A stretch of 36,742 nt of DNA from an uncultured Deinococcales bacterium (lineage in GTDB: Bacteria > Deinococcota > Deinococci > Deinococcales > JAAFIG01): assembly GCA_964247135.1 (NCBI GenBank), contig CAXTTL010000010.1, positions 1-36,742 of the forward strand. The letters run 5' to 3'. Each line of letters starts with the position of its first letter. Within the stretch, counting starts at the first letter, position 1. The position numbers were made by a program, and so were the translations under genes. The notes beneath the pieces were generated by a model, which was given only the letters and a program-made list of their open reading frames with translations, ran no database searches and had not been told where the DNA came from. Positions 4,961-9,028 of the stretch are shown piece by piece.

Positions 4961-5305
4961 CTCGAGCCTCACAAAAACATAACGCTCGAGACTCCCAAAA
5001 AAACCCCCAGTTTTTTCGCTGTCGCTTTGCTGATGCCCCGTTTGCCAGCAAGAATCTGTGACAGTGTGCTCTGCGCCACCACACCAGCTTTCTCGAGTTT
5101 GTTGGTTCGCTTATGCTGGGTTTGATGGACGTGATGCTCGCTCGAGAAATGCTCTTTATGCTGTGGGCGGGTAATCGTCCAAAGCTCCAACTTCTGCCCA
5201 AGGGTGCTTGTCCACGAAAATCACTGGCACAACCAAACCATGCTGTTTGACTGCCCGCTCGAGACTTTCATCGGCTGTAATGAACTCACAACCCAAAGAT
5301 TCAGC
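4961..5305. repeat. Copy A of a ~350 bp segmental duplication (HigA HTH fragment + linker + vapC 3' end); copy B at 8322-8694
   Basis: Aligns by eye with 8322-8694 from CTCGAGCC to CCCAAAGATTCAGC. Confidence 0.9.
4969..5097 (-). pseudogene. Orphan C-terminal HTH half of a HigA-type antitoxin
   Basis: LEKAGVVAQSTLSQILAGKRGISKATAKKLGVFLGVSSVMFL*, nearly identical to the C-terminus at 5873-6038. Similarity stops at CTCGAG 5092-5097. Confidence 0.8.
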
Positions 5306-5677
5306 AATTGCCAAAAACTCTGCATCGCCAGTGCTTCGGGTGCGATGCAAGGCTTTTTGCAGGGCATAAACCCGACCCCAATCGGGTGTGTGACTCTGCC
5401 AACTCGCGCCAAGAATGTCCTCGAGCACACCCAAACCATCCTCGAGCGCGACCAAACCCGCGCCAATGGCATCGCGGTAAATGACGTTTGCAACTTCGGA
5501 GAAGAACAATTCTGGCACGTGCAATTCTGCCCCGTGAATCGCGGCACGACTGAGGAAAGTTGCGGCAGCGTTGGCGAGTGTGCGGCTGCTCTCGGGAATC
5601 AGACTGTCAGGTAAACCGCCAAGCACAGCAACATTCGTGTCAATCACATAACGTCGGGCAATATTTCGGGCGTTCAC
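5156..5677 (-). CDS. vapC: PIN-domain (VapC-family) toxin
   Basis: PIN acidic motifs YVIDTNV, ELFFSEVAN, GDAEFLAIA and FITADESL. Confidence 0.88.
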   Translation of the reverse strand: MNARNIARRYVIDTNVAVLGGLPDSLIPESSRTLANAAATFLSRAAIHGAELHVPELFFSEVANVIYRDAIGAGLVALEDGLGVLEDILGASWQSHTPDWGRVYALQKALHRTRSTGDAEFLAIAESLGCEFITADESLERAVKQHGLVVPVIFVDKHPWAEVGALDDYPPTA

Positions 5678-5829: not shown

Positions 5830-5872
5830 GTTTACAGTTTACACCATTTTAAATTAGCAAAACTCGAACCAA

Positions 5873-6326
5873 TCACAAAAACACAACGCTCGAGACTCCA
5901 AAAAACACTCCCAGCTTTTTCGCTGTCGCTTTGCTAATCCCCCGTTTGCCAGCAAGAATCTGTGACAGGGTGCTTTGCGCGACCACGCCCGCCAGGTGCA
6001 TTTTGTGGTCAAGAAGCGACCACACCAGCTTTCTCGAGTTGGACTTGGGTTGTGCCACGGTCACGCATCAGGCTGGCGAGCGCATCGCGTGGCGTGCTTG
6101 GGGTTGATGCCCACGGGTCGTTCGCGTTCTCCCACTCGAGCATGTAACGGGCGATCAGGTCTATCAATGGCTCGAAAGTCGGGTCATCCATCGCGTAACG
6201 GTTCGTCAGGTTTTCGAGCAGCGCGTGAAGCTCGAGGTATTCACTTTCGGTTTCGGGTCGTTTGATGTGCGCGTGATGTTGGAAGGACACCCAAGCATTT
6301 TGGGCTTGCTCGAGGTTGATTTTCAT
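5873..6326 (-). pseudogene. higA: HigA-type HTH antitoxin interrupted by a 37-nt insert
   Basis: N-part ..RPETESEYLEL..LIARYMLEWE..TPRDALASLMRDRGTTQVQLEKAGVVAS* (6009-6326). The HTH resumes in another frame as AGVVAQSTLSQILAGKRGISK. Removing 5979-6015 restores one ORF. Confidence 0.85.
5979..6015. mobile_element. 37-nt hairpin micro-insert in higA
   Basis: GCGACCAC repeated 37 nt apart (5979, 6016). Internal stem GACCAC/GTGGTC. Absent from the paralogous copy near 5075. Mobility is inferred only. Confidence 0.55.
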
Positions 6327-6327
6327 T

Positions 6328-6720
6328 CTATCGAATCAGAACAACTTTAAAAGGCAAGTGTGGCAATTTCTTCCAAGCTTGTTCTGCGGTCAAAACGTTT
6401 TGCTGGCTGACTTCTGCCAGTGCCAGACACGCGCAATCACCAAGGCTGAGGTTATACGGATTTCGTCTGGCATAGTAAAACGCGGCGACATCAGATTGTT
6501 CAGCATCAAAAGCGACCACCTCGAGTACATCTTTTAATAAATCAAAGCGAGTATCAATCATTTGTGGCGTGTACGTTCCTGACCCGACCAGTTTGCCTTT
6601 GACTTCGGTTCGGTTGACGGTTGAGATCAGCAAACTACCTTTTTCAAGTTCTTTTTTGACGGCTTCATCGCCAGTTTCCTTCAGAAAGAAAGCCATCAGA
6701 GCACTGGCATCTACGACCAT
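6328..6720 (-). CDS. vapC: PIN-domain (VapC-family) toxin
   Basis: VVDASALMAF, STVNRTEV, LSLGDCACLALA and VLTAEQAW. Confidence 0.92.
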   Translation of the reverse strand: MVVDASALMAFFLKETGDEAVKKELEKGSLLISTVNRTEVKGKLVGSGTYTPQMIDTRFDLLKDVLEVVAFDAEQSDVAAFYYARRNPYNLSLGDCACLALAEVSQQNVLTAEQAWKKLPHLPFKVVLIR

Positions 6721-6980
6721 TTTTTGGCTGCCTCGGCATGGCGTTCATCAAGCAATTCTTGTACCAAATCACGACCATCTTCTCGAGCGAAAGCGCCGTG
6801 TAATTCTTCGATGATGGCATGACGGGTGGTGATTCTGACACTGTTATTCTCGAGTCGCACGATTAAAGCATCGCCTGGTTTAAGGTTGAGGGCTTCCCGA
6901 AATTCGGCGGGGATGACCACTTGTCCCTTTTCACCCAATTTGGCATCTTTGGAAACTTTTCCTGTTAATGTGAGTGTCAT
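6711..6980 (-). CDS. vapB: AbrB/MazE/SpoVT-family antitoxin (VapB-type)
   Basis: KLGEKGQVVIPAEFREALNLKPGD motif. Overlaps vapC. TACAAT-N6-ATG. Confidence 0.92.
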   Translation of the reverse strand: MTLTLTGKVSKDAKLGEKGQVVIPAEFREALNLKPGDALIVRLENNSVRITTRHAIIEELHGAFAREDGRDLVQELLDERHAEAAKKWS

Positions 6981-7117
6981 ACTCTCATTGTATAACGATT
7001 TTATCTCGAGTTCAACTTATTGTTTGTAGTTACCCATAAAGCAGTGTCAATCCCTCGAGTTTAGCTGCATTCCAAATTCTCGAGCATCTTAAACCCTAAG
7101 AAAGGAGCAAAGAATTA

Positions 7118-7537
7118 ATGCTTAATGTCACCAAAATTACCGATGTCTGGGCGAAAAACAGTGCCGTCCTGAACCACATCAGCCGTCCAAAAACCCAAGC
7201 AGATTACCTCGAGTTGATTGATTTGATCGAACACATTACCGACACGGTGGATGACCTCGAGAACAACCCGTACATCGGCTTGCTCGACATTGCCATGACG
7301 TATGCGGACGAATGGGAAGAGCTTCATGTCATACTCGAGGATTCAACCACACCTTGAGATACGCTGGCATTTTTGATAGAACAACATGACCTGACGCAAA
7401 AAGACCTCGAGCGTCTGGGTATTGCCTCGCAACCTGTGATTTCCAAAATTTTAAAAGGCGAACGTGCCATTAGCAAAAGGGTAGCGCAGAAGTTGGCAGC
7501 GTATTTCAATGTGAAACCAAGTGCATTTCTGTTTTGA
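7118..7537 (+). pseudogene. higA: Second HigA-type antitoxin with in-frame TGA at 7355-7357
   Basis: AAGGAG RBS. ..EDSTTP*DTLAFLIEQHDLTQKDLERLGIASQPVISKILKGERAISKRVAQKLAAYFNVKPSAFLF*. The paralogue reads TPRDALA, so a CGA>TGA change is likely. Confidence 0.88.
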
Positions 7538-7579
7538 GAAATTGCTGCTCGAGACTCCAAAAACACGCACAACTTTGAC

Positions 7580-7609
7580 TGCACATTTAAATGTGCAATA
7601 TGCTAAAAT
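7580..7609 (+). promoter_or_regulatory. Perfect 18-bp palindrome (candidate TA operator) plus -10 box
   Basis: TGCACATTTAAATGTGCA at 7580-7597. TGcTAAAAT (-10 at 7604-7609) lies 6 nt before ATG 7616. Confidence 0.65.
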
Positions 7610-7615
7610 ACCTTT

Positions 7616-7858
7616 ATGGAAACGCAAAATCTGACGCTCAGAGTCCCAAAAACCCTGCTGCAAAAAGCAAAACGAACAGCCGCCGCTCGAGGCACAACCA
7701 TCACCAACTTGGTCATTGAAGGACTGACTCGAGCGACAAACACCAATCTCGAGTACGAGGCGGCTTTAAAGCGGCAACGCGCCATGATGGACGACGCAAG
7801 CCCACGACGCGGCAAAGGTGAGGTCATACCCAACCGTGAAGCAGCGCATGAGCGCTAG
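7616..7858 (+). CDS. Ribbon-helix-helix-type antitoxin
   Basis: NLTLRVPKTLLQKAKRTAAARGTTITNLV RHH pattern, C-terminal REAAHER, overlaps the PIN gene. Confidence 0.85.
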   Translation: METQNLTLRVPKTLLQKAKRTAAARGTTITNLVIEGLTRATNTNLEYEAALKRQRAMMDDASPRRGKGEVIPNREAAHER

Positions 7859-8279
7859 TCTCGAGTTTGTTGACACCAACATTTTGCTGTACGCCTTTGA
7901 TACTACCGAACCCGAAAAGCATTCAAGTGCTCAAAAACTCCTCGAGCGTTTGTGGGAACAACAAAACGGTTGTTTGAGTGTGCAAGTATTGCAAGAATTT
8001 TTTGTCAACGCCACGCGCAAACTGAAAAAACCGTTAACCCGCATCGAAGCTCGAGCGGTTCTCGAGGATTACAGTTTGTGGATTGTGCATGTCCCAAGTG
8101 CGGCGGAAGTCATCATGGCAACCACACTGATGGATACAACCAGTATTTCATTTTGGGATGCGATGATGGTCACGAGTGCGCTCGAGTTGGATTGTCGTGT
8201 TGTTTGGAGTGAAAATTTGAATGCGGGGCAAAAAATAAATGGATTGGAAATCCGCAATCCGTTTGCATCAGGTGTTTAA
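7848..8279 (+). CDS. vapC: PIN-domain toxin
   Basis: FVDTNILLYA, SVQVLQEF, SFWDAMM, WSENL and IRNPF. Start placed at ATG 7848. Confidence 0.92.
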   Translation: MSASLEFVDTNILLYAFDTTEPEKHSSAQKLLERLWEQQNGCLSVQVLQEFFVNATRKLKKPLTRIEARAVLEDYSLWIVHVPSAAEVIMATTLMDTTSISFWDAMMVTSALELDCRVVWSENLNAGQKINGLEIRNPFASGV

Positions 8280-8321
8280 CTCGAGCATCAAAGGTTTTTA
8301 ATTTGGCAACACTCGCAAATT

Positions 8322-8694
8322 CTCGAGCCAATCACAAAAACACCACGCTCGAGACTCCAAAAAACGCTCCTAGCTTTTTCGCTGTTGCCTTGCTAATCCC
8401 ACGCTTGCCAGCAAGAATTTGTGACAGTGTGCTTTGCGCGATCCCGCCCGAAGGTGCGTTTTGGGATCAAGAAGCGACCACACCTGCTTTCTCGAGGTTG
8501 TTGGTTCGCTTATGCTGGGTTTGATGGACGCAATGCTCGCTCGAGAAATGCTCTTTATGTTGTGGGTGGGTAATCCCAGACTCCGCCCAAGGGTGCTTGT
8601 TTATCAAAATCACTGGCACGACCAAACCATGCTGTTTGACCGCCCGCTCGAGACTTTCATCGGCTGTAATCAATTCACAACCCAAAGATTCAGC
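8322..8694. repeat. Copy B of the segmental duplication (HigA HTH fragment with insert + degenerate vapC 3' end)
   Basis: Matches 4961-5305. Has a ~10-nt deletion in the vapC tail and a 36-nt insert in the HTH fragment. Confidence 0.9.
8438..8473. mobile_element. 36-nt variant of the hairpin micro-insert
   Basis: GCGATCCCGCCCGAAGGTGCGTTTTGGGATCAAGAA followed by GCGA. Stem GATCCC/GGGATC. Confidence 0.55.
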
Positions 8695-8696
8695 CG

Positions 8697-8987
8697 ATGG
8701 TTGTGCTGGTAAACGATCAAACAGCGTCATGCGGAGAATACTTTGCCAGTGAAATGCAATGGCAAAAACGAGCACTGGTTATTGGGCAAGTCACTGCTGG
8801 AATTGGTAATTCTGCGGCAGAACTTTTCTTGCTTACCAACGGATGGAGAATTGCAGGTGACCACTTCGCTCACCTTTCATGACGATGGTAGCCCCTTAAC
8901 CCCTCAGTATTTCCAGATATCGAAGTGGTCAACGCTTGGGAAAAGCTGTTCACGGGTCGCGACGTTATTTTGGAAAAAGCAATTTAA
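8697..8987 (+). pseudogene. C-terminal remnant of an S41-family peptidase, two frameshifts
   Basis: VVLVNDQTASCGEYFA..RALVIGQVTAG, then ELQVTTSLTFHDDGSPL, then VFPDIEV..GRDVILEKAI*, in shifting frames. Confidence 0.8.
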
Positions 8988-9028
8988 ATTCTTCAAAATC
9001 CGTAACATTCGCTTGGGCAATAACACAT

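Follow-up and report, generated by a model that had tools for sequence, protein, structure and literature searches.

Two HigA-type antitoxin genes of an uncultured Deinococcales bacterium are interrupted by members of a family of very small hairpin repeats

Two HigA-type genes with a hairpin insert

The DNA considered here, referred to as the window, is a 36,742-nt stretch of an uncultured Deinococcales bacterium (GenBank assembly GCA_964247135.1, contig CAXTTL010000010.1), in which two HigA-type antitoxin genes each contain a copy of a short hairpin repeat unit. The genome that carries the window (G000) is a 5.09-Mb metagenome-assembled genome (MAG) of 386 contigs that is 84% complete, and it was compared with 18 relatives from the same taxonomic family (G001 to G018). 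The features concerned, with the scores of the two units under the covariance model (R1) described below, are the following (HTH, helix-turn-helix).

4969..5190, minus strand: uninterrupted paralogue of 73 aa with an HTH_3 domain; the site reads GCGCCACCAC and is empty
5873..6326, minus strand: copy 1 of the HigA-type antitoxin gene, disrupted; its N-terminal part (6009-6326) runs to a TGA that lies in the unit
5979..6015, plus strand: repeat unit, copy 1; 37 nt; R1 score 59.8 bits
6016..6023, plus strand: GCGACCAC 3' of copy 1; original HigA codons (V-V-A), resembling the 5' end of the unit
8332..8775, minus strand: HTH gene, copy 2, disrupted by an in-frame 36-nt insert with a TGA
8438..8473, plus strand: repeat unit, copy 2; 36 nt; R1 score 60.8 bits
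8474..8481, plus strand: GCGACCAC flanking copy 2; original gene sequence

Both inserts had been reported in an initial annotation of this DNA, and re-reading the window sequence returned them at the same positions (5979-6015 and 8438-8473) and with the same letters. The repeated GCGA that had been noted after each corresponds to GCGACCAC, which adjoins both inserts on the 3' side, and the third paralogue near 5075, said to lack both insert and GCGA, indeed reads CTGCGCCACCACACC. Copy 1 consists of the arms GACCAC/GTGGTC, the core GCCCG-CCA-GGTGC, the internal loop ATTTT, and the tail AAGAA; copy 2 has the arms GATCCC/GGGATC and the GAA form of the loop. Both annotated stems are present, and DNA folding gives the same nested hairpin in the two copies. 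The folding energy of a single copy is ordinary by comparison with shuffled sequence (z -1.1 for copy 1 and -0.5 for copy 2). The inserts are not due to chance, because an exact-pattern search found a match in none of 100 shuffles and the unit recurs about 150 times in the genome.

The coding (minus) strand reads GTC GCT TCT TGA, so that the TGA lies two codons after GTC, as annotated. In copy 1 the N-terminal open reading frame (6009-6326) ends ...EKAGVVAS*, and the HTH remainder (5873-5978) picks up one base out of frame, as AQSTLSQ..., AQSTLSQILAGKRGISKATAKKLGVFFGVSSVVFL*. The insert splits the HTH domain between helices 2 and 3, and Pfam HTH_3 was detected in this gene in the 3' piece only; of the other HTH sequences in the window, the scan covered the uninterrupted paralogue, which also matched. 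Copy 2 keeps the frame, with a single TGA (...GVVAS*SQNAPSGGIAQSTL...). Its open frame (8467-8775) passes from what is left of a PIN gene, a C-terminal stretch, into the HTH gene; the normal order, PIN followed by HTH, is seen in the intact pair at 4969-5677. The initial annotation also held that the interrupted codons are re-created after the insert; copy 1 has GTC...GTC in this respect and copy 2 has GTC...ATC.

A repeat family with a conserved core and tail

A short-word BLAST search of the genome with the 55-nt neighbourhood of the insert returned dozens of near-identical 36-37-mers on many contigs. From an alignment of 44 diverse copies, the consensus is GCG, 5' arm, GCCCG-N1-4-GGTGC, RTYTT, 3' arm, CAAGAA. 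The 5' GCG is invariant, the arms are variable but mutually complementary, and the tail is (C)AAGAA. The inner hairpin GCCC-GNNA-GG(T)GC is fixed and has one bulged T, the conserved RTYTT forms an internal loop, and the outer stem consists of 6 bp that are free in sequence but paired. Units are 36-40 nt long and gene-less, and a longer class (39-40 nt) has an unchanged core and tail.

The covariance model R1, built on this alignment, gave at least 143 matches in G000, counted among the 150 candidates scored. A sequence-only profile (nhmmer) gave 150 hits on 88 contigs (76 on the plus and 74 on the minus strand), of which 125 are near full length, and pattern-based peeling resolved 147 units at 114 sites; the three counts agree. 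The two inserts belong to this one family of about 150-200 copies. A short-word BLAST and covariance-model search for further copies had been proposed with the initial annotation; about 150 uninterrupted copies are found in this genome with R1 as well as with nhmmer. The alternative that had been named there, a one-off duplication, falls away, since other copies exist and the covariation described below holds.

No Rfam 15 family matched the window between 4500 and 9200, and a search of ten repeat loci against the same release gave a single sub-threshold CRISPR-DR57 hit, which lies outside the unit (23.7 bits vs. 39). Full-text searches on small repeats in Deinococcus gave nothing on this unit; other repeat names were not searched. 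We conclude with high confidence in the identity of the element that the units form a real, previously undescribed family of very small insertion-competent hairpin repeats, which enter their targets by an unusually exact rule.

Covariation of the outer stem

In the set of 44 units, 98.8% of 430 cells are paired, a percentage that is inflated because the unit sets were chosen by patterns demanding at least 4 arm pairs. Five of the six outer-stem pairs change on both sides, and such both-side changes occupy 79 cells, compared with 24.0 +/- 4.9 in shuffles (0 of 500 shuffles reach 79). When the partner is slid by one to three columns, pairing falls to only 27-42% (maximum 41.9%). Among the four inner pairs, three never vary and one changes one-sidedly in a single copy. 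In view of the selection, the count was redone on 58 units at 54 loci in other genomes, of which 95.4% of 454 cells are paired and again five of the six outer pairs covary; this second alignment was itself fitted to R1 and leans to the structure of the model. The structure is thus backed by covariation across the family, and not by folding energy. Mispairs of the G.T type outnumber those of the A.C type on the unit strand (7 vs. 2), a weak hint that the strand that folds is the one running from GCG to AAGAA.

Covariation as such, which had been claimed from the two window copies, extends across the outer arms of the whole repeat family. The accompanying claim, that the differences between the two HigA inserts are two double compensatory substitutions that arose locally, does not stand. 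The 147 units carry 23 arm hexamers; GACCAT has the most units (63), and GACCAC is represented only by HigA copy 1. Copy 2 is identical at 36 of 36 positions to a unit on another contig (G000:C56:121-156), and the GACCAC/GTGGTC arms of copy 1 recur in the HTH modules of G001 and in tandem units of G009, which belongs to another genus; the two inserts are therefore representatives of different arm subfamilies. Between the two HigA loci, identity is 108/120 in the left flank, 30/37 in the unit, and 24/28 in the right flank. On these comparisons, the arm differences reflect separate arrivals, or exchange with the genome-wide pool of units, rather than selection on local structure.

Distribution among genomes

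Apart from G000, R1 detected the unit in every family genome but one (17 of 18, across five genera; G015 gave no match), with 6-161 matches each (counts per genome rest on 150 scored candidates), and found none in 22 genomes of four sister families. An exact pattern, which fits the 38-nt variant only, was run against 345 other Deinococcota genomes and against collections of viral and metagenome contigs. It matched G000 and 13 of the 18 other family genomes, none of the 345 other Deinococcota genomes, no sequence in the viral collection, and two in the metagenome collection; a reversed control pattern matched nothing. One identical 37-mer is shared by six genomes of three genera, and core and tail are invariant across the five genera.

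This recurrence bears on the suggestion that the inserts are a one-off local duplication or an artefact of assembly. The MAG is fragmented and many units lie at contig ends, as such an artefact might produce, but hundreds of copies are present in 18 independent assemblies and filled HTH modules occur in a second genome (G001) and in independent metagenome contigs, which leaves this explanation with a negligible probability.

The genome is saturated with the palindrome CTCGAG, which occurs 33,925 times in 5.09 Mb (about 1,370 expected) and 241 times in the window; GCTCGAGC is hyper-abundant in all 18 other family genomes and in some sister-family genomes. Four of 114 unit sites are at CTCGA^, compared with 0.87 expected (P about 0.012), and these are a minority of sites. 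Any tie between the unit and CTCGAG is loose, because the excess at sites is weak and the palindrome is also abundant in family genomes that are poor in units and in some genomes of other families that are free of them. Genes for Uma2-family nucleases are expanded in G000 to G018 (6-40 matches per genome). As a correlate of the units this expansion was likewise dismissed, because a unit-free genome of another family has 33 matches.

Filled and empty sites

In the two antitoxin-type genes of the window, the unit entered between the second and third helices of the HTH, directly 5' of GCGACCAC. Orthologues of the copy-1 HigA gene were found in G002, G003, and G004, of the same genus, and in G010, of another genus, and all four lack the insert. 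These empty orthologues read ...GCGCGACCACACCAGC or a close variant, such as ...GCTTTGCGCGACCACACCAGC..., and because they carry the octamer at the site, GCGACCAC predates the insertion. Contigs from two public sediment metagenome runs join position 5978 to 6016 and skip the 37 nt. They stem from relatives and need not be of the same strain as the window. Nineteen sequencing runs were listed, each at a share of 0.16 or below, and none of them was an RNA run.

A module made up of the last ~35 HTH codons and the ~90 nt that follow them (…CGCTCGAGACTCCAAAAAAC…) recurs with 87-90% identity at 4961-5088, ~5863-5978, and 8322-8437. In the window and in related genomes, it is joined to different upstream gene bodies, which suggests module exchange or gene conversion among antitoxin genes. 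Among the HTH modules inspected, units fill 2 of 3 in G000 and 3 of 4 in G001, and none of those in G002 (0/1), G003 (0/4), G004 (0/2), and G010 (0/1). The G001 modules contain tandem GACCAC/GTGGTC units and another unit nested in a unit tail (CAA^GAA). Two chimeric units are also present there and are accounted for by deletion between neighbouring cores. One of these chimeras had given rise to the idea that the left arm is copied from the target; this was ruled out by the deletion explanation and by the GACCAC/GTGGTC units of G009.

State of the disrupted genes

The G004 orthologue of copy 1 is an intact HigA of 151 aa, with HTH_3 at residues 99-147 (1e-09), and is preceded by a HigB toxin of 103 aa (PF09907, 5e-21). 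Similarity between G000 and G004 stops about ten bases before the shortened HigA start in G000, where a PIN/MazE pair is found in place of HigB. At copy 2, the upstream PIN gene is truncated: its 5' part is lost and its C-terminal part is kept. From this we infer that both HigA genes are inactivated remnants of toxin-antitoxin loci already without an intact toxin partner, and not regulated genes. TGA is an ordinary stop in G000, in which it ends 445 of 1091 open frames of at least 300 codons on the 60 largest contigs, and reassignment of TGA was ruled out on this ground.

Two further observations concern the surroundings of these genes. Fragments resembling an S41-type peptidase (by eye) lie in two frames at 8697-8990 and abut the truncated PIN gene, so that gene remnants are clustered beside copy 2. 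In a third HigA-type gene (7118-7537, plus strand), which contains no unit, a single in-frame TGA at 7355-7357 separates the N-terminal part from the HTH (…EDSTTP*DTLAFLIEQHDLTQ…); this gene is probably another pseudogene.

The initial annotation had left a choice between a site-specific micro mobile element and a recoding or excisable switch that uncouples the HigA N-domain from its HTH. The former survives as a small mobile element with about 150-200 copies, filled and empty sites, and exact nesting; the switch is not supported, because orthologues are intact without the insert, the loci are decayed, and the two copies differ in frame. A programmed element, by which ribosomal bypass, read-through or hopping at the TGA, or excision from DNA or RNA would yield full-length HigA conditionally, has some features in its favour. 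In copy 1, GTC stands before the gap and again 37 nt after it, with the TGA and the hairpin in between; copy 2 is in frame and reads UCU-UGA-UCC, with serine codons on either side of the stop; and hairpin inserts bypassed by ribosomes are known from T4 gene 60 and from the mitochondria of Magnusiomyces (PMC5009743). Yet the stop is two codons past GTC, the candidate take-off codon, and not adjacent to it, and copy 2 has no matched landing codon (ATC vs. GTC). One insert (37 nt) is out of frame and the other (36 nt) in frame, so that two different mechanisms would be required, and read-through of copy 2 would put 12 additional codons, including the stop, into the turn that joins HTH helices 2 and 3. 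Moreover, the orthologues in four relatives have no insert, neither locus retains an intact toxin partner, and the unit is mostly intergenic and breaks other genes out of frame too (by 74 nt in a Uma2-like gene). Programmed recoding is thus very improbable.

Arrangement and target sites of the units

Units are found in three arrangements: as singles, as direct tandem arrays with a 36-37-nt period and up to five units, and nested in one another. Ten tandem junctions abut exactly, and partial units are found at array ends. All 19 nested inserts are at GCCCG-N1-3-A^(A)GGTGC of the host unit, that is, between the last A of the loop and the G of GGTGC, and removal of the inner unit restores a complete host unit in all 19. 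The shared position is no artefact of the method, because removal would restore the host wherever the insert lay. Inner and host units differ in arm type in every case and always have the same orientation (19 same, 0 opposite). Units no more than 150 nt apart are likewise co-oriented: 37 neighbours share a strand and 1 does not.

Under a looser pattern (155 sites, including some false positives), 39 sites are at the tips of GTAG...CCCTAC palindromes, which are the repetitive extragenic palindromes (REPs) of this genome and are entered in both REP orientations, and 35 are inside a hairpin repeat that we call H1. The layout of H1 is AAACTCCCTTCTCYC-loop-GRGAGAA^GGGTYGGGGATGAGRG; 66 of its copies are empty, 23 hold units of various arm types at the marked place, and five more are filled at a second place. 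Upstream of the same conserved gene, one H1 copy holds a unit in G000 but lacks it in G003. H1 is itself a second abundant hairpin repeat (AAACTCCCTTCTCYC-loop-GRGAGAAGGGTYGGGGATGAGRG), with ~105 copies genome-wide (e.g., L001:190-275, on G000:C23). It has a covarying stem, is frequently located immediately upstream of start codons, and is a favoured host of the mini-unit.

At sites outside H1, the unit is preceded by A in 62 of 88 cases and followed by G in 69 of 88. A perfect stem of at least 6 bp spans 21% of 105 sites, compared with 1.5% of 20,000 random positions. Only 30 of 114 sites are within open frames of at least 200 aa, whereas 80% of 1,500 random positions are. Cases within genes include two nested units (74 nt in total) that break the frame of a Uma2-like gene, one unit inside an IS6-type transposase gene, and one 39-nt copy in a low-complexity linker. 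A 36-nt unit at G000:C313:2868-2903 is in frame and stop-free, at VLVE|AKNE of a gene that is nuclease-like by eye, and the E-A-K motif is re-created at its 3' junction because the unit ends in GAA. At G000:C3:30560-30990, a fragment laid out exactly like the HigA side (...QVQLEKVGVVAS), a unit, and a fragment resembling an IS5-type transposase (by eye) stand in succession; this locus appears to be a rearrangement breakpoint at the unit.

The scarcity of units in long open frames (30 of 114) is one of the points that would suit a reading of them as primarily functional sites, for protein binding, as small RNAs, or as transcript-end hairpins, maintained by selection and with spread as a secondary matter. 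The strong conservation of core, RTYTT loop, and tail across genera and the preponderance of G.T over A.C pairs on the unit strand would also fit. Such a role is poorly matched by units that lie within repeats, within each other, in arrays of up to five, and in broken genes; presence at the same site varies between close relatives, no Rfam family matches, and no neighbouring gene is common to 12 loci from 11 genomes. We consider a primarily functional origin improbable.

Mode of spread

The filled and empty sites, the copy number, the nested insertions, and the decay of the interrupted loci together make it probable that a proliferating, insertion-competent mini-repeat broke the two genes. Confidence in how it moves is low. 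The fixed core and tail, the paired but free arms, the orientation-specific entry into loops, the preference for A^G, and the lack of a clear target duplication (the bases at the junctions leave an ambiguity of one to three) lead us to infer a factor acting in trans on single-stranded or hairpin DNA, and an enzyme that acts on single-stranded DNA may move the unit, which we hold as a tentative proposal. In such a scheme, a trans-acting protein would copy the unit on single-stranded DNA; it would recognise the fixed core hairpin, and its sites of cleavage and joining would be the AAGAA|GCG boundary and loop-exposed A^G steps. Tandem arrays might then extend by local slippage or read-through. 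The sites themselves show that entry takes place in one orientation only, typically between A and G, and usually at the 3' edge of a hairpin loop, whether in another unit, at a GTAG-type REP tip, or at the fixed place in H1.

Several results weigh against the account as a whole, in addition to the arm-pair selection of the unit sets and the fitting of the second alignment to R1. All genomes compared are incomplete MAGs. Of 112 sites, 43 have GAA at the end of the left flank and 23 have GCG at the start of the right flank, the same letters with which the unit ends and starts; with this junction microhomology, homology-driven copying (template switching, or gene conversion of HTH modules) fits as well as transposition does. 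The HigA site is atypical, since its left base is C and it has 8 nt of identity to the 5' end of the unit, and its predicted target hairpin is weak (5 bp, z +1.08), with a stability that does not exceed that of shuffled sequence. The four Y1-transposase (Y1_Tnp) matches in G000 have no unit core within 700 nt, and the two do not go together in relatives: G008 has no Y1 match and 40 unit matches, G006 none and 112, and G011 four and 6. Finally, the neighbourhoods of identical units (12 loci from 11 genomes) share no gene.

Some candidates can be discarded on these results. The Y1 transposases associated with REPs (RAYTs) were rejected as the mover of the unit, because they are not adjacent to it and gene and unit numbers do not track. 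The entry into hairpin loops was ruled out as the explanation of the HigA site by the weakness of the predicted hairpin. A search for the IS91-type Y2 transposase (Y2_Tnp, PF04986) gave no match anywhere and is uninformative, because control genomes were equally silent.

For the HigA site in particular, homology probably helped, by template switching or by gene conversion between HTH modules that are 87-90% identical. Extended to the whole family, this becomes an account with no dedicated enzyme, in which units spread by template switching or slippage during replication and gene conversion carries the insert among antitoxin HTH modules. A nascent strand set free at a hairpin of the template would pair, through a few bases of microhomology, with the GAA tail or GCG head of a unit elsewhere, copy that one unit, and go back. 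It would accommodate the GAA and GCG flanks, a HigA target that already held GCGACCAC, an 8-nt look-alike of the 5' end of the unit, the tandem arrays with partial units at their ends, and the G001 chimeras, which fit recombination between neighbouring cores; the HTH modules are clearly exchanging sequence, and no linked transposase was found. It accounts less well for the nested sites, many of which offer only one base of homology (GTCA^GG, GTTA^GG), although position and orientation were identical in 19 insertions out of 19. Core and tail, moreover, do not vary over five genera, and one 37-mer is common to six genomes from three of them; this constancy points to recognition by a factor, and not to hairpin formation alone. 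As a general explanation, spread by homology without an enzyme is the main rival account but rather unlikely.

A more specific version of enzymatic spread is speculative, and we put it forward as an unlikely but defined possibility: the unit would be a minimal "hairpin-loop homing" element, of which the 37 nt hold every cis signal for a chromosomal single-strand nicking and joining enzyme other than the RAYT of the REPs. It would be copied strand-specifically, at an A^G step, into the 3' edge of whatever hairpin loop is exposed, and would represent a second and independent occurrence, in Deinococcota, of a phenomenon otherwise known only from the small dispersed repeats (SDRs) of Nostoc.

Comparison with known systems

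To our knowledge, the SDRs of Nostoc are the only clear precedent for mobile DNA on the scale of 36-37 nt. They form hairpins and nest in one another. The SDR families of Nostocaceae are reported in the 2008 work of Elhai and colleagues (Genome Res 18:1484). SDR4-6, and SDR5 especially, are the closest analogue of the present unit: they are gene-less, well under 100 nt, and inserted at precise positions, and both they and the unit are filled in one genome and empty in a relative. The host genomes are also alike in being rich in a hyper-abundant palindrome, HIP1 (highly iterated palindrome, GCGATCGC) in Nostoc and CTCGAG here. In papers that deal with the Nostocaceae repeats (PMC4390886, PMC13756078; see also PMC5861425), SDR5 is 21 nt long and inserts precisely between nucleotides 3 and 4 of HIP1. 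The unit differs in size (36-40 nt, compared with 21-27 nt for SDR1-8). It also belongs to another phylum and targets the 3' edge of hairpin loops at A^G rather than the hyper-abundant palindrome of its genome, at which a minority of sites lie, and CTCGAG is more widespread than the units are.

Insertion sequences (IS) that target REP loops, namely IS1397 and ISKpn1, share with the unit the use of a REP hairpin tip as target, but are full IS with a transposase gene, compared with 37 nt. That REPs serve as IS targets is also described in PMC3733652. As outlined there and in PMC3116915, the repeats known as REP, BIME (bacterial interspersed mosaic element), and REPIN (REP doublet forming a hairpin) are imperfect palindromes of 20-40 bp, present in about 100 copies or more and associated with RAYT transposases. 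They resemble the unit in palindrome size, copy number, a mostly intergenic location with occasional presence in open reading frames, a compensated stem, and non-autonomy. The unit, by contrast, has no GTAG or CGTC tag, and starts with GCG and ends with AAGAA. Units are co-oriented (37 neighbours vs. 1) and nested, with no inverted doublets; they lie away from Y1/RAYT genes and insert into the tips of the genome's own GTAG-type REPs.

HUH transposons (IS200/IS605, IS91, and Helitrons) have a single-stranded DNA substrate and enzymes that cut and join it. The likeness of the unit to them concerns its possible working logic, with no claim of membership: a short target that is specific in strand and orientation, no clear target duplication, a hairpin near the 3' end, and tandem copies, which could be produced by rolling-circle read-through. 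The unit differs in that it is 37 nt long and encodes nothing, and no linked HUH gene was found.

The bypassed inserts of T4 gene 60 and of Magnusiomyces ("byps"; PMC5009743 and bioRxiv 10.1101/2022.08.31.505936) are likewise short hairpin inserts in a coding sequence with an early stop, and in copy 1 only there is also the same codon before and after the gap. The difference is that the interrupted HigA state is not conserved and the loci are decayed.

Significance

For HigA itself, the outcome is an ordinary one: both genes are remnants inactivated by insertion. For annotation, the units break genes, create false open reading frames, and fragment MAG assemblies. The taxonomic boundary of the family is sharp, with presence in one family set against 0 of 345 other Deinococcota genomes (as judged by the pattern for the 38-nt variant), and a comparative hunt for the enzyme is feasible because some members of the family have few or no copies. 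Mobile or self-copying DNA of 36-37 nt is barely documented, and this family of units provides a second, cleaner case. If hairpin-loop homing were true, it would recur in palindrome-saturated genomes, which would hint at a shared DNA-processing activity.

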